DNA from: a virus
DNA length: 64,000 bases
Direction: 5' to 3' (one strand)
Virus record (IMG/VR): IMGVR_UViG_3300045450_000145
Coordinates: 1 to 64,000 of that record
The notes under the pieces are model-generated. The model had not been told where the DNA came from. It ran no database searches and saw only the letters and a list, made by a program, of their open reading frames with translations. Below are positions 6,401 through 29,334 of the stretch, one piece after another. Position 1 is the stretch's first letter, and each line of letters opens with the position of its first letter. The translations under genes were made by a program, and so were the position numbers.

Positions 6401-7043
6401 AGATGTCAATTTGAAGTTGCAGTAGCATTCTTCTAATTGCCTGAATTTCAGGCGTATTCTCATTTGCAGGAATGTTGATCGGAACAACAATAGCGATGTT
6501 CACATTTTCATCAAAAGGTGGAATGGTGGCTCTGCAAATTCCCTTCGCATGCTTAGAAATATCTGGCACTAACTTAGGTACGTTCGTCTGATCAAGAGGA
6601 CCACACCTAATTAGGCCAGTTTTCGCTTCTTCAGAATTTCGAAGAGACTGTGCGCTAGATGCATTTAGCTCAGAAGATGAGAAGCCGTTGCCTGATGCCT
6701 GCTTTGCAGCATAGTTCGTCATTAAGGTATTAATTATAGGGTCTTTAGCGACGTAAAAGATAACTGGGTTTTCAGTCTTTTCGTATTCATTTTTAGCAAC
6801 CCATGCACCAATCGCGTGTGGATTCTCTTTAATTAGCGTGTCAATTTGGGTCTTTGACCTTTCACTAATTTGATTCTTTGGGCCAGGTAAGTCTGTTGCT
6901 GACACCCGATCTACGCGCCGAAGTATTTCATTCTGTAAATCTTTGGCGCTGACAACAAAAATAGTTAAAATAGCACATGCAATGGCAAGTAAGATAGCAG
7001 CAACGCTAATCCAGATTACATTGCGATGTAGAAATGCCTTCAT
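6354..7043 (-). CDS. single-TM protein with periplasmic domain, holin-T-like
   Basis: N-terminal TM; ICRATIPPF motif shared with ORFs 23754 and 24609. Confidence 0.45.
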   Translation of the reverse strand: MKAFLHRNVIWISVAAILLAIACAILTIFVVSAKDLQNEILRRVDRVSATDLPGPKNQISERSKTQIDTLIKENPHAIGAWVAKNEYEKTENPVIFYVAKDPIINTLMTNYAAKQASGNGFSSSELNASSAQSLRNSEEAKTGLIRCGPLDQTNVPKLVPDISKHAKGICRATIPPFDENVNIAIVVPINIPANENTPEIQAIRRMLLQLQIDIFNRDYQGRETWARPL

Positions 7044-7099
7044 CTTTTCTCTCCCTTTAATGTTATATTTAGCATAACCTGAAGGTTAGTTGCAAAAAG

Positions 7100-7129
7100 T
7101 TGTACAAACCAAGTTTTGCTGTATATAAT
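7100..7129 (+). promoter_or_regulatory. early promoter upstream of tRNA-array leader
   Basis: ttgtac 7100-7105, tataat 7124-7129. Confidence 0.75.
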
Positions 7130-7152
7130 TACAACATCAACAAAACAATGTT

Positions 7153-7206
7153 GATAAATTTAAAATCTCTTTAAGTTATGCAGGTTGAAAAGATTTTAAA
7201 TTTATC
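7153..7206. repeat. perfect 16 bp inverted repeat in tRNA-array leader
   Basis: gataaatttaaaatct (7153-7168) / agattttaaatttatc (7191-7206). Confidence 0.9.
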
Positions 7207-7268
7207 GCAAAAGCGATATATAATTAATCAACACGAAGCAATACTGCTTTATAAACTAGGAATTACTA

Positions 7269-7385
7269 ATGAGCTTTATTATGAATCAACGCAATGAGAA
7301 ACAGTGGCAAAATTGCCATAATGTTTCTGTGCGCTTTGATCGTGATGAGATTATTGCCCTGGACGAAGGAGTAGGATACGCATAA
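7269..7385 (+). CDS. 38 aa candidate leader peptide MSFIMNQRNEKQWQNCHNVSVRFDRDEIIALDEGVGYA
   Basis: SD-like aggaa upstream; its 3' end overlaps the predicted antiterminator. Confidence 0.6.
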   Translation: MSFIMNQRNEKQWQNCHNVSVRFDRDEIIALDEGVGYA

Positions 7386-7413
7386 AAGACGTATCTAATA
7401 CTAAGAAAGTCCA

Positions 7414-7450
7414 GGGAAACAGCGAAAGTTGTTTCCCTTCTTTGTTTTTG
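7414..7450 (+). terminator. intrinsic terminator (attenuator)
   Basis: gggaaacagc-gaaa-gttgtttccc followed by ttctttgtttttg. Confidence 0.8.
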
Positions 7451-7464
7451 TAGGTTAAAATTTA

Positions 7465-7494
7465 TTGTACTTTGATCGTAGAGTGCATTATAAT
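7465..7494 (+). promoter_or_regulatory. early promoter directly upstream of first tRNA
   Basis: ttgtac 7465-7470, tataat 7489-7494. Confidence 0.75.
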
Positions 7495-7529
7495 AAAAGT
7501 TCTTTAAAATATTAGTAGCAAAATTAATT

Positions 7530-7604
7530 ACTGCGTTCGACTTCTGGTGAGGTCATCACCCTTTCAAGGTGACTAGATGGGATCGTAACCCATACGCAGT
7601 ACCA
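7530..7604 (+). tRNA. tRNA-Glu(TTC)
   Basis: actgcgt/acgcagt acceptor; tcacc-ctttcaa-ggtga; T-loop ATCGTAA; CCA encoded. Confidence 0.9.
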
Positions 7605-7618
7605 CCAAATTAAATAAC

Positions 7619-7693
7619 ACTCACGTAGATTAGAAGTTAGATCACTTGGCTTTCACCCAGGAGAAACGGGGGCAGTACCCGTCGTGAGTACCA
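7619..7693 (+). tRNA. tRNA-Glu(TTC), second divergent copy
   Basis: actcacg/cgtgagt; cttgg-ctttcac-ccagg; T-loop GGCAGTA; CCA. Confidence 0.85.
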
Positions 7694-7701
7694 AAATTAT
7701 T

Positions 7702-7851
7702 ATGTTAGATCACATCAAAGATTGCCCACTCTGTTGGACAGAAGTAGAAGACGAAAGTCATTCATGCAATTATTGTGGTTATAAAATTTCCCAGTTAGTG
7801 TATAATGAAACTGACTGGGAAGAAATAACAAACGTAATTATACCTGCATAG
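7702..7851 (+). CDS. 49 aa zinc-ribbon protein
   Basis: MLDHIKDCPLC..CNYCGY; stop lies inside tRNA-Ile 5' end. Confidence 0.5.
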   Translation: MLDHIKDCPLCWTEVEDESHSCNYCGYKISQLVYNETDWEEITNVIIPA

Positions 7852-7915
7852 TTCAAAGGTAGAACAAAGTGCTGATAACGCTTAGACGATGGATCGATAC
7901 CATCTGCAGGTACCA
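7842..7915 (+). tRNA. tRNA-Ile(GAT)
   Basis: acctgca/tgcaggt; aagtg-ctgataa-cgctt; T-loop ATCGATA; CCA. Confidence 0.9.
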
Positions 7916-7934
7916 AGTATAAGAATACTTAGGT

Positions 7935-8005
7935 GTGACGGTAACTCAATGGTAGAGTTCTAGACTGTGACTCTGGATGCGCGGGTTCGATTCCCGTCCG
8001 TCACC
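7935..8005 (+). tRNA. tRNA-His(GTG), no encoded G-1, no encoded CCA
   Basis: gtgacgg/ccgtcac, C73; ctaga-ctgtgac-tctgg; position -1 is T; 3' reads CCT. Confidence 0.9.
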
Positions 8006-8018
8006 CCTAAGTATTTTT

Positions 8019-8094
8019 GGACTATTAGCTCAATCGGGAGAGCACGTCACTGTCACTGACGAGGTAAGGGGATCGAAACCCCTATAGTCCGCCA
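8019..8094 (+). tRNA. tRNA-Asp(GTC)
   Basis: ggactat/atagtcc; cgtca-ctgtcac-tgacg; T-loop ATCGAAA; CCA. Confidence 0.92.
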
Positions 8095-8200
8095 AAATTT
8101 TCTAAACCGGATCGCGACAAGAAGGTTATCAACTTTTACTTGAAAACCCCTTCTAACTGCACTATCATTTATGATAATTTGTTTAGAATTACATTTTTAA

Positions 8201-8276
8201 TCCCTAGTAGCTCAGTTGGTAGAGCGTTCCGCTGTTAACGGAAAGCGCGTTGGTTCGAACCCATCCTAGGGAGCCA
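8201..8276 (+). tRNA. tRNA-Asn(GTT)
   Basis: tccctag/ctaggga; ttccg-ctgttaa-cggaa; CCA. Confidence 0.93.
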
Positions 8277-8291
8277 GATAAAGGAAGTATA

Positions 8292-8459
8292 ATGTCTGAT
8301 AGCAGAAGCTCATATTACTACTCTGAAGAATCTCAGAAGATCAAAGATTCTCCGTGTATTACAGCCCCTGATAAGAAGCATGACTGGGAACAACATGGCA
8401 GTTGGCCATCTACCTGGTATAAATGCAGACATTGTAGCGATACACGATATAATAAGTAA
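8292..8459 (+). CDS. small Cys/His protein
   Basis: 55 aa, SD aagga, HDW..WYKCRHC motif. Confidence 0.55.
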   Translation: MSDSRSSYYYSEESQKIKDSPCITAPDKKHDWEQHGSWPSTWYKCRHCSDTRYNK

Positions 8460-8467
8460 AGAATTAT

Positions 8468-8544
8468 TCCCCAGTAGCTCAGTCGGTAGTAGCAGAGCAC
8501 TGTTAATGCTCGGGTCGGTGGTTCGAATCCATCCTGGGGAGCCA
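8468..8544 (+). tRNA. tRNA-Asn(GTT), second copy
   Basis: tccccag/ctgggga; gagca-ctgttaa-tgctc; CCA. Confidence 0.92.
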
Positions 8545-8549
8545 AATAT

Positions 8550-8999
8550 ATGACAATAAAATATGAGAAAATTTCATCAGCTTTAAAAGCATACTTTAGT
8601 GAAAACGATCACGTGTCTAAGGGAACTGGAGGTTGGCACCAATCACCAGAACATATTGCAAAGAGAATGAAATCTTTACAAGAAACTATAGACAAAAAAG
8701 GTCGTAAGACTGAAGCGCAAAAGAAAGCAGGTAATAAAGCAGGAGTTTATGCATACCGAGCAAGAAAACGGAATGCGATTCCTGAAGATGCTGACTTGAA
8801 ATTGATAAAAAGAATTTATGAGAATTGTCCTGAAGGCTATCACGTTGATCATCGTATTGCGTTAGCTTCAGGTGGAATGCATCACCAAGACAACTTACAA
8901 TATCTTCCAATATCGGAGAATTGTAGAAAAGGAAAGAATAGCTCATATGATGAGTCATTAGCTATTCAGTGGAAAGATTTAATGGGGTTGAAGCTTTAA
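8550..8999 (+). CDS. HNH homing endonuclease
   Basis: YHVDHRIAL..GGMHHQDNLQYL..SENCRK; stop lies inside tRNA-Lys. Confidence 0.85.
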   Translation: MTIKYEKISSALKAYFSENDHVSKGTGGWHQSPEHIAKRMKSLQETIDKKGRKTEAQKKAGNKAGVYAYRARKRNAIPEDADLKLIKRIYENCPEGYHVDHRIALASGGMHHQDNLQYLPISENCRKGKNSSYDESLAIQWKDLMGLKL

Positions 9000-9057
9000 A
9001 GTGAAGCAACTGGCTTTTAACCAGTAGAAGAGGGGCCGGTACCCTCCAGCCCTACCA
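8984..9057 (+). tRNA. tRNA-Lys(TTT)
   Basis: ggggttg/cagccct; actgg-cttttaa-ccagt; T-loop GCCGGTA; CCA. Confidence 0.85.
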
Positions 9058-9073
9058 ATATAAAGGAAATGAG

Positions 9074-9322
9074 ATGAGGATTATTGATACACAGGATATT
9101 AATAAGATTGCAGAAATCTTAGGCATTGAAAGTAAAATCCCACCTTCATTTACCATGTCATTTAAAGAAGTAAATGCTCTGAATGACATCATGCTAAGTA
9201 ATAACGCTGACGATAAAAACCTTAATGCAACAATTGAAGTTGTGCAAACTGGTATAAGCAATGCAATTAAAGTGCGTGTAGGCGGTATAGAATACGACAT
9301 CACTGATTACGATCGGTGGTAA
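9074..9322 (+). CDS. hypothetical protein
   Basis: 82 aa, SD aagga. Confidence 0.6.
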   Translation: MRIIDTQDINKIAEILGIESKIPPSFTMSFKEVNALNDIMLSNNADDKNLNATIEVVQTGISNAIKVRVGGIEYDITDYDRW

Positions 9323-9325
9323 AAT

Positions 9326-9401
9326 AAGGGTGTAGTAGTAATTGGCAACACAACGGCTTCCAACCCCGTAATTCTCAGTTCGAATCTGAGCATCCTTGCC
9401 A
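9326..9401 (+). tRNA. tRNA-Trp(CCA)
   Basis: aagggtg/catcctt, G73; acggc-ttccaac-cccgt; CCA. Confidence 0.75.
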
Positions 9402-9463
9402 AATTTGCTGAATTTCACAGTAGAAATTTAGAGGTCATAGTATAACGTGATGGCCATGAATTT

Positions 9464-9539
9464 ATCTCAGTAGCTCAATTGGCAGAGCGCCGGTCTCCAA
9501 AACCGTAGGTTGAGGGTTCGATTCCTTCCTGGGATGCCA
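9464..9539 (+). tRNA. tRNA-Trp(CCA), second copy
   Basis: atctcag/ctgggat; anticodon loop ctccaaa; CCA. Confidence 0.9.
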
Positions 9540-9618
9540 AAATTTTTGAAACCGCTAATGAAGGTTTATCTGCTATATAAACACCTTTATAACTTTTTGT
9601 TTCAATATATTAAATTAC

Positions 9619-9694
9619 GCCGCTTGAGCAAGTGTGGTCATTGCGGGAGACTGAAAATCTCTAGAACTCGGTTCGATTCCGGGAGGCGGCACCA
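9619..9694 (+). tRNA. tRNA-Phe(GAA)
   Basis: gccgctt/aggcggc; ggaga-ctgaaaa-tctct; CCA. Confidence 0.92.
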
Positions 9695-9707
9695 GATAGT
9701 ATAATTT

Positions 9708-9783
9708 GCCTCTGTAACTCAGTGAACAGAGTAGCGCGCTTCGAACGCGAAGGTCGGGGGTTTGAATCCCTCCAGAGGCTCCA
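9708..9783 (+). tRNA. tRNA-Arg(TCG)
   Basis: gcctctg/cagaggc; anticodon loop cttcgaa; T-loop TTTGAAT; CCA. Confidence 0.88.
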
Positions 9784-10203
9784 TTAAATTTGCTTAATTA
9801 GTAAGGTACTATGTTTATCGCTGGTTCTTTTATAACCACGTTTTTCATAGTATGATGCAGCAATCTTACTAGAAACTAAGGTTACATTTTTCTTCTTACG
9901 CTTTGCGAATCTTTCAACTGCAGTTAAGAGCTCAGCTCCTGCGCCAGGTAAGATTGAACCGAAGTGTGAGATATGAATAGCTTCATCTTCACTGAATGAT
10001 ATAGCCGCTGCGATTCTGTGATCTTCTATCTTTGCCCACTTATGAGGCACATTATCCAGCAGCGCAGCTTCTAATTCAGAATGATTCTCAACTTTTTCGT
10101 CGTGAAAATTCTCTTCCTCAAAGCGACGGGCCCAATACATGGCACTGGCTTCACCTTTAGGTAGCTTTTCAATTTCTTCTTTAAGTAATTCAGATATTTT
10201 CAT
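9784..10203 (-). CDS. GNAT-family acetyltransferase
   Basis: From MKISELLKEE; HISHFGS..GAGAELL..VTLVSS..AASYYEKRGY; TATAAATA just upstream. Confidence 0.7.
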   Translation of the reverse strand: MKISELLKEEIEKLPKGEASAMYWARRFEEENFHDEKVENHSELEAALLDNVPHKWAKIEDHRIAAAISFSEDEAIHISHFGSILPGAGAELLTAVERFAKRKKKNVTLVSSKIAASYYEKRGYKRTSDKHSTLLIKQI

Positions 10204-10215
10204 GCACATATTTAT

Positions 10216-10289
10216 ACCCGCGTAGCTCAATGGTAGAGCGCTGCTTTGACTCAGCAGATACGAAGGTCCGATTCCTTCCGCAGGTACCA
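10216..10289 (+). tRNA. tRNA-Val(GAC), atypical U37
   Basis: acccgcg/cgcaggt; ctgct-ttgactc-agcag; T-loop TCCGATT; A73-CCA. Confidence 0.7.
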
Positions 10290-10296
10290 CATTTAT

Positions 10297-10368
10297 TGGG
10301 GTGAGACTTGGTAGTCGCGAACGGCTTTGACCCGTTACGAAAAGAGTTCAATTCTCTTCACCCTTGCC
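10297..10368 (+). tRNA. tRNA-Gln(TTG)
   Basis: tggggtg/caccctt (U1.U72), G73; aacgg-ctttgac-ccgtt; CCA not encoded. Confidence 0.8.
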
Positions 10369-10375
10369 CGTATAT

Positions 10376-10450
10376 CGTCCGTTGGCAGAACGGTTATGCA
10401 CCTGGCTCTTACCCAGACCTACCTTGGTTCGACCCCAAGGCGGACGACCA
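10376..10450 (+). tRNA. tRNA-Lys(CTT)
   Basis: cgtccgt/gcggacg; ctgg-ctcttac-ccag; CCA. Confidence 0.8.
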
Positions 10451-10471
10451 CAATTTTAAAAGGAGTAATAT

Positions 10472-10645
10472 ATGAACGTCAGCAACATTAACTATACTCC
10501 CGGCTCTGAGCCTGCAACCCGCGCAGAGGTAGAATTGGAAATTACAAAGTCGCTTGATCGAATTAAGATTGAAGGTGAAAGCATTTCTGTCTTGGTAGAT
10601 GGCAAGTATAAGCGTTTAGATAACCTTCGGGCTAATAATGGTTAA
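10472..10645 (+). CDS. 57 aa hypothetical protein
   Basis: Strong SD aaggag; MNVSNINYTPG... Confidence 0.6.
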   Translation: MNVSNINYTPGSEPATRAEVELEITKSLDRIKIEGESISVLVDGKYKRLDNLRANNG

Positions 10646-11024
10646 GTCATATTTTCCAGACGATACTCCTGAAGAGTTAGAGGCTAGAGTCGTAGAGGTT
10701 ACCAGGGCTGCAGCAATCATAGCTGCAAAGTGTGGCTCCATCCCCACGATATTAGTTAATGGAGTTGTATATTGGTCTATGCCAGATGGCAACAACATTG
10801 AAACATATAATGGCGATAGAAACACAAGTTCGTATGAAGCATATACGAACAGACAAATACTAATAATGGCAATTCAAACTAGAATTAAGCTTGCTAAATT
10901 AGGTGATGAATATAAACACATTTTAGAAGAGGCATTATATTCGGAGTTGCTTGAGATAAATGCATCACTAAGAGAAAAATATCCGACTCAAAGTGATGTA
11001 CTTTTTGACAAAGGTGAGTTATAA
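10638..11024 (+). CDS. hypothetical protein
   Basis: 128 aa ORF. Confidence 0.6.
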   Translation: MVKSYFPDDTPEELEARVVEVTRAAAIIAAKCGSIPTILVNGVVYWSMPDGNNIETYNGDRNTSSYEAYTNRQILIMAIQTRIKLAKLGDEYKHILEEALYSELLEINASLREKYPTQSDVLFDKGEL

Positions 11025-11044
11025 TTCTTCTAACAGGAGAAGAT

Positions 11045-11380
11045 ATGGCAAAATCTGAAAAGGTAGTTATGAAAACTGTCGAGAAGCAGCTTGGCATTCA
11101 AGATATAAGCTTTACTCGGGAGCTCCTAATTAGGATGCTCGATGACGTCATCGTAGATGTGCCGGAAGAGTTTCGCTCTAGTGTCGTATTTGAAGTTGAA
11201 CGGCACATGGAAACTTATAGTGATGATTATCATGCTGACATGTTTATGCGTTATAAACGACCGGAAAATGAAGTTGAGCGTGCTGAACGTTTAAACAAGG
11301 AACAGCGTCTCAATGAGCTGCAGGAAAAGCGCCAACGTGAGCAGTATGAAGAGCTAAAGAAGAAATTCGAAGGAAAGTGA
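11045..11380 (+). CDS. hypothetical protein
   Basis: 111 aa, SD aggag. Confidence 0.7.
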   Translation: MAKSEKVVMKTVEKQLGIQDISFTRELLIRMLDDVIVDVPEEFRSSVVFEVERHMETYSDDYHADMFMRYKRPENEVERAERLNKEQRLNELQEKRQREQYEELKKKFEGK

Positions 11381-11381
11381 T

Positions 11382-11633
11382 ATGAGCGCGCTTCGTCAAG
11401 AAATTTATAATGCGATTCAACGAAATGCAGAATATAATGGCGGAATTAATAAGGGCCGTTATAATGGATGCAAAGAGTTTCTACGAGAAAAGCTTATCAT
11501 GTCAGGCATTTCAAATATGCCTAAACTGAAAAACTTTGATCCTTCAGATGAGCAGTGGCTTAATAAGCTAAGCGATGTCTTTCTGCTAGAATACTACGAA
11601 CGAGTCGTAGTTGCAACATATAAACAAATGTAA
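11382..11633 (+). CDS. hypothetical protein
   Basis: 83 aa ORF. Confidence 0.6.
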   Translation: MSALRQEIYNAIQRNAEYNGGINKGRYNGCKEFLREKLIMSGISNMPKLKNFDPSDEQWLNKLSDVFLLEYYERVVVATYKQM

Positions 11634-11645
11634 TAATATTTTTAT

Positions 11646-11719
11646 ACCTCTGTAATTCAATGGTAGAATGCCGTGCTGATAACGCGGTCACACAAGTTCG
11701 AATCTTGTCGGAGGTACCA
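11646..11719 (+). tRNA. tRNA-Ile(GAT), second copy
   Basis: acctctg/cggaggt; ccgtg-ctgataa-cgcgg; CCA. Confidence 0.92.
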
Positions 11720-11725
11720 GTCTAT

Positions 11726-11800
11726 GGAGAACTAGTGAAGTGGCTATCACGCGGCACTCATAAGGCCGAATAGACGGATCGTAACCGTCGTTCTCTACCA
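11726..11800 (+). tRNA. tRNA with CAT anticodon (elongator Met or Ile2)
   Basis: ggagaac/gttctct; anticodon loop ctcataa; T-loop ATCGTAA; CCA. Confidence 0.8.
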
Positions 11801-11808
11801 TAATAAAT

Positions 11809-11882
11809 TGGGGTGTAGCTTAAAAGTAGAGCACGGTGCTTTGACCACCGGGAAGAAGGGGCAGTACCTTCCACCCTTGCCA
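11809..11882 (+). tRNA. tRNA-Gln(TTG), second copy
   Basis: tggggtg/caccctt (U1.U72); cggtg-ctttgac-caccg; T-loop GGCAGTA; CCA. Confidence 0.85.
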
Positions 11883-11890
11883 TATAAATA
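11883..11890 (+). promoter_or_regulatory. T4-type late promoter TATAAATA
   Basis: Exact T4 late consensus 28 nt before ORF 11918. Confidence 0.65.
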
Positions 11891-11917
11891 TTACTCCATT
11901 AATATTGGGGTAATAAG

Positions 11918-12214
11918 ATGTTAGTCGAAGAGCTGTTGAATGAAAAAGAATGGTCTCAAGCCGTAACTGATGGTCCTGCCCGAACCTTTGCTAAGAAGGG
12001 CATCCACACTAAAAAGGCGGAAGAGATTGTTGCAGAATATAAACGTAAGGGCGTTAGCCCAAAAGGTTTAGGGTCTGCAATTAGAATGTTACAATTCTAC
12101 ATTAATCGTGCAGGTAAAAACCTGCACAACGGCCCAGAGATTAAAAAAGCTATCAAGATGTTGCAAGCAGACTTAGCTAAGGAACACGCCAAGGCTGAGA
12201 AAAAGAAGGATTAA
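11918..12214 (+). CDS. DUF3175-like protein
   Basis: WSQAVT...SAIRMLQFYINRAGKNL resembles the DUF3175 signature (from memory). Confidence 0.6.
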   Translation: MLVEELLNEKEWSQAVTDGPARTFAKKGIHTKKAEEIVAEYKRKGVSPKGLGSAIRMLQFYINRAGKNLHNGPEIKKAIKMLQADLAKEHAKAEKKKD

Positions 12215-12219
12215 ATATT

Positions 12220-12402
12220 ATGGACATGTTCCCCTCTTTCATTCTGGACGATGAGCGCGAAGCCGCCAAGAAAATTGTTGATAACAAAGGACCGTACCTT
12301 GATATTGGGATGCATTTTTCAAATCATAGTCCTGCAGATATCGGTGGACAGTATGAAGAACGTCAAGGCTTTCTAGCTAAGTTGAAAAACTTATTCAGAT
12401 AA
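12220..12402 (+). CDS. hypothetical protein
   Basis: 60 aa ORF. Confidence 0.5.
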   Translation: MDMFPSFILDDEREAAKKIVDNKGPYLDIGMHFSNHSPADIGGQYEERQGFLAKLKNLFR

Positions 12403-12416
12403 AATAATTTTGCGGT

Positions 12417-12770
12417 ATGAAATTACAAGAATTAAATTCACCAAAGTGGATAGTCATTTATTCAACTGGCAACAATCCTAGAGCTCCAGTTCTAAACGCG
12501 GTTGTAGTTAGTGCTGAAAGCAAAGATGCTGCCGCATTACATACAACTAAACATTTATCAAAGAATGTTATTGATGTGGTATCTTTTTTACCTGCAAAAA
12601 TGACAAAAGTTCGGGTAAAAATGAAAGATGCAGATGAGCAAGGTTTACCAGGTTACTTTGACGGAATGGTATTTTTAGCTAACAAGGAAGAAGCTGAAAT
12701 TATACCAGTTATTTTAGTACCTTATTATGAAAAAATTCACAACGTCAAGCTTGACGTTGCACGAGCTTAA
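12417..12770 (+). CDS. hypothetical protein
   Basis: 117 aa, starts MKLQEL. Confidence 0.6.
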   Translation: MKLQELNSPKWIVIYSTGNNPRAPVLNAVVVSAESKDAAALHTTKHLSKNVIDVVSFLPAKMTKVRVKMKDADEQGLPGYFDGMVFLANKEEAEIIPVILVPYYEKIHNVKLDVARA

Positions 12771-12845
12771 ATCACCGTAGTATAGTGGAAAATGCGATGG
12801 CTTGCGAAGCCGTAAACACAGGTTCGATTCCTGTCGGTGGTACCA
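12771..12845 (+). tRNA. tRNA-Arg(GCG)
   Basis: atcaccg/cggtggt; atggc-ttgcgaa-gccgt; CCA. Confidence 0.85.
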
Positions 12846-12851
12846 TTTTAT

Positions 12852-13118
12852 ATGACATACATCAAAAAAGCACTTGGCACATTTAATATTTACCTAACCA
12901 CACCTGACAAAGTCAACGAGGTGCTTAAAGACATGGGCGAGGAGATGAGAGATTATACAGATCGAGCAGCGAGAAAAGAATGTGCTTGGATATGTTCTTC
13001 TTGCGGTGGCTTAGATTCTAACGGCATGCCAGATGAATGCTTTGGTAAAGATGAATGGTGTAATAACGTAATTAAAATTGATAAGGCACGAGCTTTCTGT
13101 TTACAAGATGGTGACTAA
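12852..13118 (+). CDS. Cys-rich hypothetical protein
   Basis: From MTYIKK; CAWICSSCGG..C..C. Confidence 0.6.
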   Translation: MTYIKKALGTFNIYLTTPDKVNEVLKDMGEEMRDYTDRAARKECAWICSSCGGLDSNGMPDECFGKDEWCNNVIKIDKARAFCLQDGD

Positions 13119-13156
13119 GTAATATAATTACTCATACGCAATCTTTAAGGATTAAT

Positions 13157-13411
13157 ATGAGCCAACGTTCTAAGCTGCTTGACCAGATTACTCTTTGCTC
13201 TATTGTCGATCTGCAGAAACTTTTTCGGTCGGCTCTAGTCCAAATTAGTCGTGAATCGGCAAACTCTGGCTCTCATGAAGGTCTTCGTCGAGAAATCGAT
13301 CGCATTATGTGCGAAACTATTATGCTGGAAACTGATCAAGCTAATATTCGCGACAAAAAACTACAACAAGTAAACGAGATGAAATTCGATGACGAAGATG
13401 AGGACTCTTAA
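13157..13411 (+). CDS. hypothetical protein
   Basis: 84 aa, SD aagga. Confidence 0.65.
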   Translation: MSQRSKLLDQITLCSIVDLQKLFRSALVQISRESANSGSHEGLRREIDRIMCETIMLETDQANIRDKKLQQVNEMKFDDEDEDS

Positions 13412-13574
13412 GGACATGATCGATCAAATGGCAATTGATGAATGCCCTGACGAATTCATAGAAGGCCAGCAGGCATATGAGAAAGGCAAGTATACTAACC
13501 CGCATAATCCAGGGTCTATTAAGTATATTGCCTGGTTTGAAGGATATAGGATTGCGAAAGCAGAAGACGAATAA
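13389..13574 (+). CDS. hypothetical protein
   Basis: 61 aa; NPH..W..G motif; start uncertain. Confidence 0.55.
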   Translation: MTKMRTLKDMIDQMAIDECPDEFIEGQQAYEKGKYTNPHNPGSIKYIAWFEGYRIAKAEDE

Positions 13575-13581
13575 TTTTAAT

Positions 13582-13652
13582 GACTCGGTGGTATAGTGGT
13601 TGTGCCGTGGATTGCAAATCCACAGAGGGCGGTTCAATTCCGTCTCGAGTCT
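13582..13652 (+). tRNA. tRNA-Cys(GCA)
   Basis: gactcgg/tcgagtc, U73; gtgga-ttgcaaa-tccac; CCA not encoded. Confidence 0.9.
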
Positions 13653-13694
13653 CAGGTTACATATTTGCATAAATAATCCTTTTAAGGAAATAAT

Positions 13695-14324
13695 ATGCAA
13701 AGAAGAGCAGACCAAAGATCATATCATTACATATACAAAATAACTAGAAATGATGGTAAGTACTACATTGGAATGCATAGCACGGATGACTTAGAAGATG
13801 GTTATTTTGGTAGTGGGCAAAGATTGTCTAGATCCATTAAGAAGCACGGTAAAGACATCCATAGTAAAGAGATATTAGAATTCTTGCCATGTAGAGAAAC
13901 GTTAAAGGCAAGAGAAAAAGAACTGGTAAACTATGAATGTTTAGCAGATGCATTTTGTATGAATCTTCGAGTAGGTGGTGAAGGTGGTGGATCATTTACT
14001 TTTGAACAAAGATCAGCAGGCGGTAAGAAGGGTGGCAAAAAGATAGGTAAAATAAATGTAAAGTTTATTCAAACACCTGAAGCAAGGGAAAAAGCCAATA
14101 TAACTAAAAAGAAAAATGGTAATAATGGCTGGCTCGGTAAGACGCATAAAGAAGAAACTAAAATCAAAGTGGGTTTAGCTAATTCAGAGCACCAGAAGGG
14201 AAATAAAAATTCCCAGTTTGGAACTTGCTGGATTAATGACGGAACTAGAGCAATAAAGATTAAAAAGATAGAGCTTAATGAATATCTTGAAAAAGGTTTT
14301 AGCCTTGGAAGAAAAATGACATGA
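13695..14324 (+). CDS. GIY-YIG (Seg-like) homing endonuclease
   Basis: YIYKIT..KYYIGMH..YFGSG..E..N; NUMOD3-like GKTHKEETK. Confidence 0.88.
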   Translation: MQRRADQRSYHYIYKITRNDGKYYIGMHSTDDLEDGYFGSGQRLSRSIKKHGKDIHSKEILEFLPCRETLKAREKELVNYECLADAFCMNLRVGGEGGGSFTFEQRSAGGKKGGKKIGKINVKFIQTPEAREKANITKKKNGNNGWLGKTHKEETKIKVGLANSEHQKGNKNSQFGTCWINDGTRAIKIKKIELNEYLEKGFSLGRKMT

Positions 14325-14641
14325 ACTTACAAAATTCCCTAGTTCGCTACATTGAGAATCAGCTTAAAAATAATCATGGAGGTGATTGTTCTAAGGTGGG
14401 TGTCAGGCTTGCATTTCCAGCCATTGTGTTTTATAATGAAGAGCCCATAAATAAAGCGCTAATAGCTTTAGATAAAATATTGATGCTAGAATCCACGGGG
14501 ATTGATAAAATGGATGATGCGCATAAGTTGCTCCTTAACCTATTAATTGATGCTGCCAATATTGAACTAAAAGATATTCCTGCTAGTCTCAAGCGTTTTG
14601 AGGAATGGGAAGCAAAACAGAAACTTGAAGAACAAAAATAA
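14321..14641 (+). CDS. hypothetical protein
   Basis: 106 aa, ATGA overlap. Confidence 0.6.
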   Translation: MNLQNSLVRYIENQLKNNHGGDCSKVGVRLAFPAIVFYNEEPINKALIALDKILMLESTGIDKMDDAHKLLLNLLIDAANIELKDIPASLKRFEEWEAKQKLEEQK

Positions 14642-14659
14642 TAACAAATTGGAACTACA

Positions 14660-14842
14660 GTGAATAGCGATATTGTAAAGCATTATTTCAAACCTATCTC
14701 GTCGGAAAAACTAAAAGAGATGAGTAAAAACGATAGAGAAGAATGTGTTGGTCTTGATGAAGTCAATATTGATAAATCTATAGTTAATGAAATTGCGCCG
14801 ACCCACCGGCATACTGTTAGTTTGAAAAAACAGTGGGACTAA
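14660..14842 (+). CDS. hypothetical protein
   Basis: 60 aa, GTG start. Confidence 0.45.
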   Translation: MNSDIVKHYFKPISSEKLKEMSKNDREECVGLDEVNIDKSIVNEIAPTHRHTVSLKKQWD

Positions 14843-14846
14843 TTAT

Positions 14847-14923
14847 TGCGTCGTAGCTTAAATGGAAGAGTGGCCTGATTCTGAGTCAGGAGGGCCCGGG
14901 TCCGATTCCCGGAGGCGTTGCCA
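14847..14923 (+). tRNA. tRNA-Gln(CTG), weak acceptor stem
   Basis: cctga-ttctgag-tcagg; T-arm ccggg-tccgatt-cccgg; U1.U72, G73-CCA. Confidence 0.7.
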
Positions 14924-14971
14924 ATACTATTTTGCTTAAATAGAGCATATTTCATAGATGTGGGGTTGCAG

Positions 14972-15265
14972 ATGTTAAGTAGAAAGCTTATAATTATTTT
15001 AGCAGCTGTAGTTGTCATTTTGACTGCTATTGCTGCTTTTTTCGTTGGTGGAAGATATTTTGATTTAACACCATATAATGAAGCAACTAAAACTGCAATT
15101 GAGGATGCAGACAGCGCATCAAAAGCGGCAGATAAGGCAGCCGTTTCTGCTCGTCGAGCTGCAGATTCTACGCGGGCTACAGCATCACAAGCAGAATCTT
15201 CTGCAAAGGACGCCTCAAATAGCGCTAAAGATGCACAAGAGAGTGCAAACCGTAAACCACGCTAA
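14972..15265 (+). CDS. membrane-anchored Ala/Ser-rich coiled-coil protein
   Basis: TM LIIILAAVVVILTAIAAFFVG then A..SA..A heptads. Confidence 0.65.
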   Translation: MLSRKLIIILAAVVVILTAIAAFFVGGRYFDLTPYNEATKTAIEDADSASKAADKAAVSARRAADSTRATASQAESSAKDASNSAKDAQESANRKPR

Positions 15266-15275
15266 TTAAATTTAT

Positions 15276-15728
15276 ATGACTAATTTTACTCTTATCCCCG
15301 CCGGATATCGGCTCAGTGTCACTTCTTGGGAGAATGACGCTGACAACTATCAAACTGAAGTGCTAGAAGGCCTAACTAGGGAAGCGGTAATTGCATATAC
15401 TGAACTTCTAAAACTAATTAAGAAGACGGATGGCGGTGGTTTAAGTAATAACTCTTATATGAGTACAGAAAAATTTGAGTTCATTGAAACATTCAGGCCC
15501 TTAATGCGTGAGCATACTGAGCTAGCATTGTTTATCCTTGAACAAGTAGAGGAAGATGTTGATGATGAGGAATTTGCAGATAAGCTAATTAGCTTTATCA
15601 ATGATAAATTGCTAGGTTATAGCGAAAGTTATATTATGCGCGTGTTTGAAAGCTTCAAAGTAGAATATATTCCACATGATATTCAGTTAGAAGATGTAAC
15701 TAAGGAGTTTCAAGATGTTGCTCGCTGA
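15276..15728 (+). CDS. hypothetical protein
   Basis: 150 aa ORF. Confidence 0.7.
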   Translation: MTNFTLIPAGYRLSVTSWENDADNYQTEVLEGLTREAVIAYTELLKLIKKTDGGGLSNNSYMSTEKFEFIETFRPLMREHTELALFILEQVEEDVDDEEFADKLISFINDKLLGYSESYIMRVFESFKVEYIPHDIQLEDVTKEFQDVAR

Positions 15729-15954
15729 TGAATTCAAAGAAGTAGTTTTAAAACACCTGCAGACAAAGTATTTTAAAGAGCGAGAAAAACTTGCCGAGCT
15801 AGATGGGTTTATGGCTAAAAATAGTGCATATTCATACGGCGATGAAGATAAAATTATAAAGTATCATAGTGCAATTGAGGCGACTCGCCAGAAGATGGAC
15901 ATGCTGTATAAATTATTTGGTGAAATCAACGCGATGAAAGTAATAGTAGAATGA
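15715..15954 (+). CDS. hypothetical protein
   Basis: 79 aa ORF. Confidence 0.6.
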   Translation: MLLADEFKEVVLKHLQTKYFKEREKLAELDGFMAKNSAYSYGDEDKIIKYHSAIEATRQKMDMLYKLFGEINAMKVIVE

Positions 15955-16484
15955 ATCACGATGAGCTTGCCAAGTTAGGTCGGAGTAAGGACCCCGAGGA
16001 TCGTAAGAAGTTCAAGGATGCATTGCCCTACATGCACGATTACGATAACATTGACTTTAAAAAACACCCTGAAAAATACAAAATCAATCGAGGTGAGCAG
16101 GGCGTTTTAATGGCAGAGCCATATAAGTCAGATATTGTTAAACACTGGAGATTTAAAACTCCAGAAATTGCGACTGAAAGTGCCAAGAAAATCTACAAGA
16201 TGTTTCTAGAATATCTGGAAAAGGAAGACTTTGTTGGCGCAGATATGGCGCGAAAGTTCTTAATGATGGGCTGGACTCGAGCACGTAGATATGCAAATCA
16301 CCCATCAGGCCGGAAGTATAAGAAGGGCACCAGAGAAATTTTGCCATTTGCGGACGATCACCAAACGTCAGACAAAGCTGAGTCGGCAAAAATCTTCAAG
16401 GAAGTTTATGATAAAGCCAGGCAAAATGCTACCTACCTTAAGTTGAAGGAAGCGCACAAGGCTATGTTAAAATTACAAAAGTGA
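15951..16484 (+). CDS. DUF4385-family protein
   Basis: YKINRGEQGVLMAEPYKS..HWRFKT..GADMARKFLMMGWTRARRYANH. Confidence 0.8.
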   Translation: MNHDELAKLGRSKDPEDRKKFKDALPYMHDYDNIDFKKHPEKYKINRGEQGVLMAEPYKSDIVKHWRFKTPEIATESAKKIYKMFLEYLEKEDFVGADMARKFLMMGWTRARRYANHPSGRKYKKGTREILPFADDHQTSDKAESAKIFKEVYDKARQNATYLKLKEAHKAMLKLQK

Positions 16485-16731
16485 TGTTATAATTATTCTT
16501 CAAATATATGTTTGCCAAAATCTTCTTAAAGCTGTTTAGGGTGTGCGATCACAAGTGGAAAATACACCGTGAGATTTTAGTATTTGCTAAAGCCGGTGAT
16601 AAACTGCCCGTAAGTCGAGACTACGTAATGCAGTGTGAGAAATGCGGCAAGTTAAAGAAGGAAAGTATCTAATGCGCAGAAATGACCGTCGGCCTGATCC
16701 TATTCGAGTCGTAATGATGACCAAGAAGCGT

Positions 16732-17253
16732 ATGAAAATTGCGCAGAGATTCATCACAATCAATGGCCAAGTTTGCATGTGCAGCTTTGAGGACGACATT
16801 AATTTTGCGTATCATATTGAGTATGTAATTGGGAGTAGCTACAAAGGCAAACACCTTGAAGTTGTCAACACCTTTACCGACTTAAATTATGGCTCCGCGC
16901 CGGAGCTGGGCGATATGAAAAGATTTGGGTCTGGTCATGACGGTGCATTGGAGGAAGTTAAACGACTAGATGAATTGTTTGACATTAAGCCAGGTGATTC
17001 GCTGCATCACAGCATCCAATATAGAGTGTTCGAGACGCCAGTGTATTCAGTTGGCCGCGACTACTATGAATTTGAGCAACATGAATTTTTCATCGATAAT
17101 CACGATGGCATTGCTGAGAGGTATGAAGAGTTGATTAAAAACGGTAAGGGTGATGACGCATATGACATCGCCTTCGAGCGACAGATCATCAAGAATCATA
17201 ATAACTTCAATACCTTTGAAGAGTGTATGAATTTTGTAAAGACCAAGCTATGA
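16732..17253 (+). CDS. hypothetical protein
   Basis: ORF from MKIAQ (track start at 16642 is probably too early). Confidence 0.65.
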   Translation: MKIAQRFITINGQVCMCSFEDDINFAYHIEYVIGSSYKGKHLEVVNTFTDLNYGSAPELGDMKRFGSGHDGALEEVKRLDELFDIKPGDSLHHSIQYRVFETPVYSVGRDYYEFEQHEFFIDNHDGIAERYEELIKNGKGDDAYDIAFERQIIKNHNNFNTFEECMNFVKTKL

Positions 17254-17465
17254 GAAACTTTGATGGCGCGCCAGGTATTGAAGATGTGGCTGGGTTTCTA
17301 CCAGTGTTTGTCATTTTGCCTCATGAACAAGCAGATGACAGCTTGGAAGAATACCTATGTGAGGTTGGTTTCACGGTGACTGGATTTTGTCCTGAAGAAT
17401 ATCCAGTTGCAGTAAATGTTGATTACGACTTTAATAAGATGGTTGCGACCATTAAAAGTAATTAA
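17250..17465 (+). CDS. hypothetical protein
   Basis: 71 aa from MRNFDG. Confidence 0.55.
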   Translation: MRNFDGAPGIEDVAGFLPVFVILPHEQADDSLEEYLCEVGFTVTGFCPEEYPVAVNVDYDFNKMVATIKSN

Positions 17466-17498
17466 ATAACTTACGTGTAACACATAAGGATTAATACC

Positions 17499-17750
17499 AT
17501 GGCAGCGACAAAATGTGAAATTGGTAATTGGTTTGATTACGGTGTCCAGCAAGGTGCAACCCACATGATCGTGGCATCTGATCTTTTTGATTACGAGGAC
17601 TTCCCAGTCTTTGTGAAACCGTCACAAGATGTAAATGAGACATATAAGCAATACACAAATGGCGAAAAAATGCTTACCGTGATGGAAGTTTACAATCTAT
17701 CTCAAGATAAAGCATTACAGATGGATCAGCGACGAGCCTTCAACTTCTAG
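17499..17750 (+). CDS. conserved small phage protein
   Basis: 83 aa, SD aagga; WF..G..GATHMIV..D.FDYEDFPV. Confidence 0.7.
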   Translation: MAATKCEIGNWFDYGVQQGATHMIVASDLFDYEDFPVFVKPSQDVNETYKQYTNGEKMLTVMEVYNLSQDKALQMDQRRAFNF

Positions 17751-17779
17751 TGTACTAATTCTATCACATGAGTTATAAT
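17750..17779 (+). promoter_or_regulatory. early promoter KTGTAC-N18-TATAAT
   Basis: gtgtac 17750-17755, tataat 17774-17779. Confidence 0.75.
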
Positions 17780-17804
17780 TCTCTTACTTAAGGAGAATTA
17801 TCAT

Positions 17805-18320
17805 ATGCTGGGAAAAGGTTTGAAGCGAGTATATTTGGCCGGGCCTGACGTCTTCTTTCAAGATGGATATGAACTGCTGCGCCAAAAGTCAATGCAGGTA
17901 AATAACTACCTGGCAAAGGCCATCACGCCATTTGACTTAAACGAAGATGAACTTATCTTTGACTGTTTGCCTCGAAAGAAACAGGCGGAAGTAATTGCTA
18001 AAAATAACTACAACCTAATTAGGTCATGTGATGTAGTACTTGCAAATTTAATGCCATTCCGTGGCACTGAGCCAGATGCTGGTACAGTAGCCGAAGTAGG
18101 TTTTGCATTTGCCCTCGGCAAGAAAATTATCGCCTATAATGTGCCTAAGAAAAGCTATATCCGCCAAGTACAGGAGCGAATCGGTGCCCCATTTGGGCTT
18201 GACGATGATGGTCACAATGTTGAGGACTTTGATGGGCGCATTAACCTCATGCTAACTCACGCATGTGAAATCTGCGATGACTTTGACTCGGCACTCGATA
18301 CCCTGAGTAATCTACCATGA
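17805..18320 (+). CDS. nucleoside 2-deoxyribosyltransferase family protein
   Basis: VYLAGPDVF..N..LI..CDVVLANL.PFRG.EPD.GT..EVGFAFALGK. Confidence 0.88.
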   Translation: MLGKGLKRVYLAGPDVFFQDGYELLRQKSMQVNNYLAKAITPFDLNEDELIFDCLPRKKQAEVIAKNNYNLIRSCDVVLANLMPFRGTEPDAGTVAEVGFAFALGKKIIAYNVPKKSYIRQVQERIGAPFGLDDDGHNVEDFDGRINLMLTHACEICDDFDSALDTLSNLP

Positions 18321-18514
18321 TTATTTTTATCTGCTACCTGGTTATTTGTCTGCTTATCTTTTTAGGATTAGCAGCAAAAGAGTATAATGAATACTCTAAG
18401 ACAAAGCAAGGGTTTGATGAACAGTTCTGGGTAGCAGTATTATGCCTTGCATGTCCTGTAGCCAACATTATGTTTCTAGTTCTTTTAATTGTCGAGTATT
18501 GCAGATATATCTAA
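18317..18514 (+). CDS. small two-TM membrane protein
   Basis: Two hydrophobic segments. Confidence 0.55.
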   Translation: MIIFICYLVICLLIFLGLAAKEYNEYSKTKQGFDEQFWVAVLCLACPVANIMFLVLLIVEYCRYI

Positions 18515-18571
18515 AACAGGTTACACCTTTAAATCTGTAAGATATAATCAAACTCTTATAAATATACATTC

Positions 18572-18645
18572 GCTCCTGTAGTACATTGGTAATATACGTC
18601 TTTGGTATGGACGGGAAGTAAGTTCGATTCTTACCTGGAGCACCA
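18572..18645 (+). tRNA. tRNA-Thr(GGT)
   Basis: gctcctg/ctggagc; cgtct-ttggtat-ggacg; CCA; TATAAATA at 18557-18564. Confidence 0.85.
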
Positions 18646-19742: not shown

Positions 19743-19770
19743 AAAAAGGGGACCTAGGTCCCCTTTCTTT
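19743..19770. terminator. palindromic intrinsic terminator
   Basis: aggggacctaggtcccct flanked by A and T tracts. Confidence 0.8.
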
Positions 19771-27653: not shown

Positions 27654-29273
27654 ATGGGTTCCAATATCTACACATCTTTCGCTGCAGAAAATTCTGTCAA
27701 GCCAACTAAGCAATCTACCCCACAAACTCAAGCTATTCCAGGCCGTGAAGCCGAAATGGCGCGTAATAACGCCGGAGGTTTTTCCTTCACTCTTGGTGAT
27801 TGGGGTGTCCTAGACCGCTTCCTGATGATCGGCTCTGAAAGCGCAGGCTACTATGTCGGTGCCAAGGAAACTACCAAGCTAAGCTTCGACACACTTAAGA
27901 AGTGCATCGCAGAAGATGGTGTTCGCGTCGTCAACCGCATTGTCGAGTACTCTGTTGCAGGTCGTGCGCCAAAGAATGACCCAGCTGTTGTTGCTCTTGC
28001 AGTAACAGCAGTTTATGGCAATCAAGAAACAGTTCAAGCCGCATATGGTGCTCTGTCACAAGTAGCTCGCACTGGTACCCATCTGTTCCTATTTGTTTCA
28101 ATCCTCAATGACCTTGGTAAGTGGAATGCAGCTGCAAAGCGCGGTGTTTCCGCATGGTATAACGGTAAGCGAGATGACAAGCTAGCAGTTCAGCTGCTAA
28201 AGTACCAAAGCCGTAATGGTTGGTCTCACCGTGACGTTCTTCGCCTGGCGCACGTCAAGGCTGGAACTCCAGCTCAGAATGCGCTCTTCCGCCTGGCGGT
28301 TAAGGGTGAACTGACTGATGAAGCCGGTGTAATTCTACCGCGTCTCGTTGAAGACTTCCTAACCTTGAAGGGTAATACCGACAAGCGTAAGGTCCTGTCT
28401 ATCATTGAGCAGAATGACCAGGTTTCTTGGGAAATGATTCCAACCGAGTTCATGAAGGACAAGGACATCTTGTTCGCGCTTGTGAAGAACATGGGTATGA
28501 CCGCGCTTATTCGTAAGCTTGGTTCTCTGTCTGCACACGGTGTAATTGATCCCCTGTCTGAAGGTGCAAAGCTAGTTAATAGCAAGCTTGCGGACACTGA
28601 AGCGCTAGTTCGTGGTCGTGTTCACCCAGTTACTATTTTGCAGGCAATGAAGCAATATGCTCAAGGTCGCGGTGAAAAGGGTTCTCTGGTTTGGACTCCA
28701 AATCAATTTATTGTTTCCACTCTAGATGATGCATTCTATGCGTCATTCGGTACCATTGAAAAGACCAACGAGTCTTACCTACTTGGTGTTGACATCTCTG
28801 GTTCCATGACTGGTGCGATGGTAAATGGTTCGCCTAACCTTCGCGCGTGTGATGTTGCAGCCGTCATGGCAATGGCAATTGCGCGCAACCAGCCAAATAG
28901 CCACATTGTTGGTTTCAACCAAAAAATCAAGGAGCTCAAGATCAACTCTAAGATGCGCCTTGACCAGGCGCTAGGTGAAATGCGTAACTGGGATGGTGGT
29001 GGCACCGACTGTGCGAAGCTCTTTGAGTATGCTAAGCAAAAGGGTATGCACGTCGACAAGTTTGTGTCTATTACTGACAATGAAACTTGGGCTGGTAACC
29101 AAGCTCCTGTACAGGCACTGAAGAAGTATCGTGCAGCAAAGAACCAAAATGCTAAGTCTGTTGTGATTGGTACCTCGGTATCCAACTTCACAATTGCCGA
29201 TCCTAAGGATGCAGGTATGCTAGACATTGCTGGCTTCGACTCAGCAGCACCGCAAATCATTGCAATGCTATGA
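27654..29273 (+). CDS. rsr: Ro60/TROVE-domain RNA-binding protein
   Basis: NNAGGF..LDRFLMIGSE, YQSRNGWSHRDVLRLAH, vWA MIDAS DISGSM, TDNET, GFDS. Confidence 0.93.
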   Translation: MGSNIYTSFAAENSVKPTKQSTPQTQAIPGREAEMARNNAGGFSFTLGDWGVLDRFLMIGSESAGYYVGAKETTKLSFDTLKKCIAEDGVRVVNRIVEYSVAGRAPKNDPAVVALAVTAVYGNQETVQAAYGALSQVARTGTHLFLFVSILNDLGKWNAAAKRGVSAWYNGKRDDKLAVQLLKYQSRNGWSHRDVLRLAHVKAGTPAQNALFRLAVKGELTDEAGVILPRLVEDFLTLKGNTDKRKVLSIIEQNDQVSWEMIPTEFMKDKDILFALVKNMGMTALIRKLGSLSAHGVIDPLSEGAKLVNSKLADTEALVRGRVHPVTILQAMKQYAQGRGEKGSLVWTPNQFIVSTLDDAFYASFGTIEKTNESYLLGVDISGSMTGAMVNGSPNLRACDVAAVMAMAIARNQPNSHIVGFNQKIKELKINSKMRLDQALGEMRNWDGGGTDCAKLFEYAKQKGMHVDKFVSITDNETWAGNQAPVQALKKYRAAKNQNAKSVVIGTSVSNFTIADPKDAGMLDIAGFDSAAPQIIAML

Positions 29274-29278
29274 AAAAA

Positions 29279-29304
29279 TAAAGGGACCCAAATGGGTCCC
29301 TTTT
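29279..29304. terminator. intrinsic terminator
   Basis: aaagggaccc-aaat-gggtcccttttt. Confidence 0.8.
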
Positions 29305-29334
29305 TAATTTATAATTGTAATTTTAGGAATTAAC

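Follow-up and report, generated by a model that had tools for sequence, protein, structure and literature searches.

Why large phages carry tRNA arrays, and how such arrays are regulated, are questions raised by a short locus directly upstream of a tRNA array in an uncultured virus, where a small ORF, a series of RNA hairpins and an intrinsic terminator lie between two similar promoters. The window analysed here is the first 64 kb of a 183.5-kb contig of this virus, whose completeness was estimated as about half (CheckV). This phage is only remotely related to known phages; its helicase shared 28% identity with the helicases of the jumbo phages Xoo-sp13 and RsoM2USA, and the 229-aa gene adjoining the leader had no relative in viral contigs or phage records. 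An earlier note on this DNA had proposed that the ORF serves as the sensor of an attenuator controlling the tRNA array. The features of the locus are listed in Table 1.

Table 1. Features of the leader and of the tRNA array downstream of it.
Feature	Position	Strand	Remarks
Promoter P1, TTGTAC-N18-TATAAT	7100..7129	+	Phage consensus class; leader RNA start probably near 7136
Structured 5' part of P1 transcript	7136..7230	+	Fold; inverted repeat found by blastn-short
Second sigma-70-like site, TTTAAA-N18-TATAAT	7195..7224	+	10/12 matches; function uncertain
Shine-Dalgarno site, AGGA	7258..7261	+	7 nt 5' of ATG
HP1, 90-nt imperfect hairpin with AUG and codons 1–29	7267..7356	+	z = −5.5; 7 G-U pairs
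Leader ORF, 38 codons	7269..7385	+	ATG 7269, TAA 7383–7385; codons 3–29 form the roster, codons 30–38 lie in HP2
HP2, nested hairpin, candidate antiterminator	7357..7416	+	−26.9 kcal/mol; z = −6.3 against dinucleotide shuffles
Intrinsic terminator, 11-bp stem 7413–7438 followed by U tract TTCTTTGTTTTT	7413..7450	+	−16.5 kcal/mol
Promoter P3, TTGTAC-N18-TATAAT	7465..7494	+	Same consensus class as P1
tRNA array interspersed with ORFs	7530..18645	+	22 tRNAs, 17 anticodons, 14 amino acids (ARAGORN and Rfam)

The motif TGTAC-N17–19-TATAAT occurred eight times in the window, always on the + strand, compared with an expectation of 0.18 copies. These copies, with the consensus TGTAC(A/T)-N17–18-TATAAT, lay at positions 80, 7101, 7466, 10997, 17751, 22603, 29688, and 30108, and about ten further copies of the class were spread along the contig beyond the window. 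Judged from sequence, the motif is a real promoter class specific to this phage. Two copies flank the element, namely P1 and P3, the latter being the promoter that the earlier note had correctly placed at 7465, downstream of the terminator (27 nt 3' of its stem and 36 nt 5' of the first tRNA). The leader RNA therefore most likely extends from ~7136 to ~7445, and the array has a promoter of its own of the same class. The same order of terminator and promoter was also seen at an ordinary gene boundary, with a terminator at 64831 and a promoter at 64853. Beyond 7413, the first stringent terminator on the + strand was found at 19745, past the last tRNA, so that read-through transcription from P1 could run through the tRNA array.

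The sigma-70-like site at 7195–7224 falls outside the phage consensus class, and such matches are frequent in DNA as AT-rich as this. The 5' part of the leader also contains a 16-bp perfect inverted repeat (7153–7168 and 7191–7206) and a palindrome, TATCGCAAAAGCGATA, at 7203–7218, which could be operators or RNA hairpins. Both overlap the −35 box and spacer of the sigma-70-like site.

The leader ORF looks translated, as suggested by its gene-like codon usage and its Shine-Dalgarno site. An ATG-initiated ORF of at least 35 codons with a Shine-Dalgarno site arose in 1.9% of shuffles of 7136–7447. The codon-usage score of the ORF was 2.6, compared with −5.9 ± 3.8 for stop-free shuffles (p = 0.009), and corresponded to the 25th percentile of real coding windows, while the other two frames scored −19 and −39. 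Searches with the peptide against PHROGs, Pfam, and the ESM Atlas and by tblastn gave no match. Among 1.84 billion representative proteins, only the peptide itself and a repetitive 160-aa protein (E = 6e-4) were retrieved, and we regard the latter match as spurious. The 90% cluster of the peptide has one member. One other contig carries the leader, as a 100% identical copy, and no DNA homologues were found by megablast or blastn against phage records or by exact-pattern scans of viral and genome contigs. Two other identities for a product of this region were rejected. A type I toxin would have to come from a hydrophobic 26-codon ORF (7294–7374), which is without a Shine-Dalgarno site and has off-frame codon usage, and a truncated ribbon-helix-helix protein found no Pfam match.

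The RNA of this region is exceptionally structured. The segment 7231–7447 folded at −73.8 kcal/mol (z = −7.0) and was, after adjustment for GC content, the most structured of 1834 overlapping 217-nt segments of the contig, surpassing the tRNA regions. Three hairpins, HP1, HP2, and the terminator, follow one another in it without linkers. HP1, in whose base the AUG is paired, folded at −31.3 kcal/mol on the + strand, compared with −22.6 kcal/mol on the − strand. With seven G-U pairs, and with 9 kcal/mol less stability when folded from the other strand, HP1 is a property of the + strand RNA, and a palindrome acting at the DNA level was ruled out on the same grounds. The architecture that the earlier note had described around the stop codon was confirmed in full. 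In HP2, an outer helix of 8 bp is formed by CCCTGGAC (7357–7364, codons 30–32) and its exact complement GTCCAGGG (7409–7416), an inner helix is formed by GATACG (7375–7380) and CGTATC (7390–7395), and the stop of the 38-codon ORF lies in the 9-nt loop of the latter. The right arm of the outer pairing overlaps the stem of the terminator, again as the note had claimed.

When 7000–7700 was searched with Rfam 15, only tRNA passed, and all remaining matches were below 20 bits with E values of at least 0.7. A Y-RNA-like partner of the phage Ro60 protein was rejected, as there was no Rfam match. Elsewhere in the contig, we found no paralogue of the leader and no repeat of its hairpin. The next most structured 217-nt segments were at ~182101, 81701, 116301, 35601, and 173901, with GC-adjusted z values from −3.0 to −3.9.

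The tRNAs of the downstream array carry the amino acids E, I, H, D, N, K, W, F, R, V, Q, M, C, and T, and there are none for A, G, L, P, S, and Y. Three tRNAs found by Rfam were absent from the ARAGORN predictions (7619–7693 Glu(UUC), 8984–9057 Lys(UUU), and 11809–11882 Gln(UUG), with anticodons assigned by their loops) and three found by ARAGORN were absent from Rfam (7530 Glu, 10296 Gln, and 14847 Gln), giving a total of 22 rather than 19. Since the contig represents about half of a genome, the list of tRNAs may be incomplete. Under standard wobble rules, the array tRNAs read 55.8% of the codons in the long ORFs of the phage, which is the genome base rate. By the same rules, 26 of the first 29 leader codons are readable by the 17 anticodons of the array. 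Together, the readable codons take in 13 of the 14 array amino acids and use 14 of the 17 anticodons; the rare W, C, and H and an internal M are among them. The amino acid absent from this roster is Thr, whose tRNA is the most distant one and lies behind another promoter (17751). The last nine codons of the ORF (A L D E G V G Y A), which are within HP2, are mostly unmatched to the array, and the codons chosen by a scan for the best-matching stretch, 3–29, are exactly those located 5' of HP2.

Leader codons 3–29 match the downstream tRNA repertoire far beyond chance, with p values of ~0.002 or lower under five null models. The match was noticed by eye ahead of computing these p values, and the scan statistic allows for the choice of sub-window. 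The statistic gave p = 0.002 against real protein windows and 2.5e-4 against both independently drawn codons and a Markov null, and its value was reached in none of 4000 composition-preserving shuffles and in none of 3000 sequences generated under a null that keeps both hairpins. None of the 10,009 29-codon windows from the proteins of this phage reached both counts, that is, 26 readable codons and 13 amino acids. Among 1208 ATG-initiated ORFs of 20–80 codons in the six frames of the whole contig, the leader ORF ranked second on the roster statistic and was the only one to combine such a level with coverage of at least 13 amino acids. A preference for U-ending wobble codons within the roster was considered and rejected (14 to 3, p = 0.057, not significant). 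The earlier note had taken the varied codons of the peptide as a sign that general translation failure is sensed. We revise this point: the codons are a roster of the tRNAs of the array itself, and the sensed quantity would be their supply.

HP2 and the terminator share only positions 7413–7416, an overlap of 3–4 nt comprising GGG and one A-U pair. The full HP2 with a 7-bp remnant of the terminator has a calculated energy of −33.0 kcal/mol, and the shortened HP2 with the full terminator −33.4 kcal/mol. The path between the two folds is a four-step branch migration with a barrier of 3.2 kcal/mol and no kinetic trap, so that they should interconvert quickly. In the ensemble of the untranslated RNA, the three G-C pairs beside the U tract were formed 20–60% of the time, and masking codons 26–35 to mimic a ribosome raised the full terminator to ~100% of the ensemble. 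For a ribosome at the stop codon, 7357–7364 would lie just outside the footprint, and the ribosome would stand between the two halves of the outer helix. According to the earlier note, a ribosome reaching the stop would mask the antiterminator and allow termination, and a stalled or absent ribosome would allow read-through. This logic is physically coherent, but the two folds are only 0.4 kcal/mol apart and separated by a barrier of 3.2 kcal/mol, and there is no anti-antiterminator. These energies predict a modest effect on termination, with read-through changing perhaps two-fold.

A search for an anti-antiterminator found none, and HP1 abuts HP2 without overlapping it. A trp-like 2:3 antiterminator, formed by the 3' half of HP1 and the 5' arm of the terminator, was rejected, as the duplex energy of −7.8 kcal/mol was not unusual compared with −6.3 ± 2.0 kcal/mol expected (p = 0.21). 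The leader ORF does contain an 8/9 copy of the 5' arm of the terminator (p = 0.017). An upstream perfect complement of at least 7 bp overlapping the 5' arm was present at the terminator of the leader and at no other of the 33 stringent terminators of the contig. By shuffling, the probability of such a complement was ~0.01 at this terminator and ~0.25 for at least one case among the 33, so the 8-bp pairing by itself is only moderately unusual and is weak evidence. For 26 of the 33 terminators, the 115 nt upstream lacked even a 5-nt perfect complement to the junction and 5' arm, and shuffled upstream sequences seemed to hold a complement of at least 5 nt more often, in a simple test with few readable cases. 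Accidental antiterminators may be selected against, which would account for this scarcity, or the simple test may have produced an artefact.

On the basis of what was observed in silico, namely the layout of the locus, the match to the tRNA roster, an exceptional RNA structure, and two folds of nearly equal energy, we propose that the element is a leader-peptide attenuator that senses the supply of the tRNAs of its own array and modulates read-through from P1, a reading that we consider about as likely to be right as wrong. It presumes that the ORF is translated and that the ribosome alters termination to the extent and in the direction given here. Transcripts from P1 would carry the 38-codon ORF, of which codons 3–29 would nearly all be read by tRNAs encoded downstream. 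When decoding is fast, the ribosome would keep up with RNA polymerase and be on codons 27–38 or at the stop while the terminator is transcribed, HP2 would be held open, the full 11-bp terminator would form, and a leader RNA of ~310 nt would be released. When a roster codon is decoded slowly or the leader is untranslated, HP2 would close first and capture the three basal G-C pairs of the terminator, beside the U tract, and more polymerases would read into the array. As this output would add to constitutive transcription from P3, the array would be tuned rather than gated.

An ORF with a ribosome-binding site, matched codons, and an intrinsic terminator ahead of the tRNA genes are three features by which leader-peptide attenuators are recognized, and all of them were found here. 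A leader-peptide attenuator is also expected to have no promoter between itself and the genes it regulates, and here P3 sits between the attenuator and the tRNA genes. The connection with the tRNA array drawn by the earlier note is thus strengthened by the roster match, but its word "controlling" was too strong given that P3 belongs to the consensus class of the phage. The small overlap, the missing anti-antiterminator, and the consensus promoter P3 all speak against a strong switch controlling the array.

An alternative is a stand-alone small gene, in which P1 drives a 38-residue orphan protein, the terminator insulates P3, the hairpins stabilize a short mRNA, and the overlap and the codon match are incidental. 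Large phages have many orphan small genes, the codon usage of the ORF is gene-like with a Shine-Dalgarno site in place, a consensus promoter follows straight after the terminator as at the 64831/64853 boundary, and the terminator fold wins or ties in all equilibrium calculations. However, all five nulls put the codon match beyond chance, no other of the 1208 small ORFs shows the same combination, and with 29 of the 38 codons inside a 90-nt self-complementary hairpin there would be little freedom for a selected protein. The structured 5' UTR of 133 nt also differs from the ~15–25-nt leaders that follow other promoters of the same class, and no homologue of the peptide was retrieved from 1.84 billion representative proteins, PHROGs, or Pfam. 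We consider a small gene unlikely, although it is the likeliest of the alternatives. If the ORF were untranslated, the product of the locus could be a structured non-coding RNA of ~210–310 nt with its own promoter and terminator, which can be likened to the small stable RNAs of the T4 tRNA region. Such an RNA would explain why this is the most structured segment of the contig, why three hairpins abut without a linker, why the AUG is paired in the base of HP1, why G-U pairs make the structure strand-specific, and why the unit has its own promoter and terminator. It would not lead one to expect an ORF with a Shine-Dalgarno site, frame-specific gene-like codon usage, and a roster match, and neither an Rfam family, even at E values up to 5, nor a paralogue in the contig was found, which makes this explanation improbable.

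Antitermination could instead depend on a protein or ligand. As with RAT/LicT, PyrR, or a riboswitch, HP2 would then be bound by an RNA-binding factor from the phage or its host, and binding would tip the balance against the terminator independently of translation. The iso-energetic folds would indeed need outside input to be decisive, and HP2, with its strands 44 nt apart, fits the geometry of PASIFIC antiterminators (PMC5314783). Yet no known family matches, the hairpin is unrepeated elsewhere in the contig, and the codon roster is left unexplained, so we judge a factor-dependent site to be highly improbable. The remaining explanation is that the elements came together by chance in an AT-rich region of divergent promoters and serve for termination alone. 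An 8-bp pairing is expected about once per four genomes of this size, and no homologous leader was found in the viral, metagenome, and genome contigs, the phage records, or the proteins searched. On the other hand, features that are largely independent of one another (the top-ranked structure, the presence of an ORF preceded by a Shine-Dalgarno site, its codon usage, and the roster) each have p ≤ 0.02, and chance has the slightest probability of the explanations considered. Neither a plain small gene nor an assembly by chance thus seems likely in view of the codon match to the array, the gene-like ORF, and the unusual degree of RNA structure.

Leader-peptide attenuation is a textbook mechanism, exemplified by the ilvGMEDA, thr, trp, and his leaders of enterobacterial amino-acid operons, and the stop-to-terminator distance of the trp leader resembles the 63 nt of the phage leader. 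pheL is likewise the leader of an enterobacterial amino-acid operon (PMC3082878). The attenuator proposed here would share with these systems the order of promoter, short ORF with codons linked to the product, intrinsic terminator, and regulated genes, and the position of the ribosome would likewise decide between alternative RNA folds. Unlike them, the phage leader would regulate tRNA genes rather than biosynthetic enzymes, and it samples 13 amino acids one to four times each, whereas their leaders contain runs of one to three amino acids. It also lacks the 1:2 / 2:3 / 3:4 relay, has a candidate antiterminator that overlaps the terminator by only 3–4 nt, and has a promoter downstream of the terminator. 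An untranslated phage leader would favour read-through rather than termination.

In Bacillus subtilis, bmrB-bmrCD and vmlR are reported to be ribosome-mediated attenuators that respond to slowed translation in general; the signal is ribosome-stalling antibiotics and the regulated genes are for resistance (PMC4191407, PMC9226507). In these systems, the rate of leader ORF translation, rather than a single amino acid, sets terminator read-through, which is what the earlier note had proposed for the phage. The phage leader differs in that its codons match the tRNAs encoded downstream, suggesting that tRNA supply is what is sensed. The conditional terminators defined for PASIFIC consist of a terminator and an overlapping stem-loop that starts upstream, with strands at most 50 nt apart (Millman et al. 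2017, PMC5314783). The phage leader has both of these elements, but it is without the third element of that scheme, an anti-antiterminator overlapping the antiterminator (PMC5314783). We found no published attenuation of phage tRNA genes; in the papers that could be searched, leader-peptide attenuation concerned amino-acid operons and antibiotic-resistance genes rather than tRNA genes.

If the proposed attenuator is real, the phage would measure decoding capacity directly and top it up on demand, and phage tRNAs would be connected to host defences that deplete or cut tRNAs. A more far-reaching form of the proposal is that the 27-codon roster monitors the decoding speed of nearly all codon families for which the phage has a tRNA, so that a shortage raises transcription of the array, for example after the action of host anticodon nucleases or tRNA-depleting defences. 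It would do so as a minimal two-hairpin "sliding junction" that has no anti-antiterminator and reads through by default if ribosomes are slow or absent. We advance this fuller form only tentatively and would sooner expect it to fail than to hold, and its tie to host tRNA nucleases is conjecture.

Five other loci, on unrelated phage contigs (the IMG/VR contigs L003 and L004, and L005–L007), carry a tRNA-Glu core identical to 7530–7604 with unaligned flanks, and their upstream regions gave no alignment to the leader and had no terminator. L004 has no leader-terminator unit before its tRNAs; these are single tRNAs, each with its own perfect TTGACA-N17-TATAAT promoter.

Two further observations were made elsewhere in the window. 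A weak Rfam match to the Vibrio sRNA MicX at 29077–29315 on the − strand (29.6 bits against a gathering score of 75, E = 8e-4) overlaps the 3' end of the Ro60 gene and its bidirectional terminator, and is probably driven by the terminator hairpin. At the consensus promoter 29688, the −10 box ends 6 nt before the ATG (29723) of a 125-aa ORF, which would place the transcript start at or beside the start codon and makes this a candidate leaderless mRNA.
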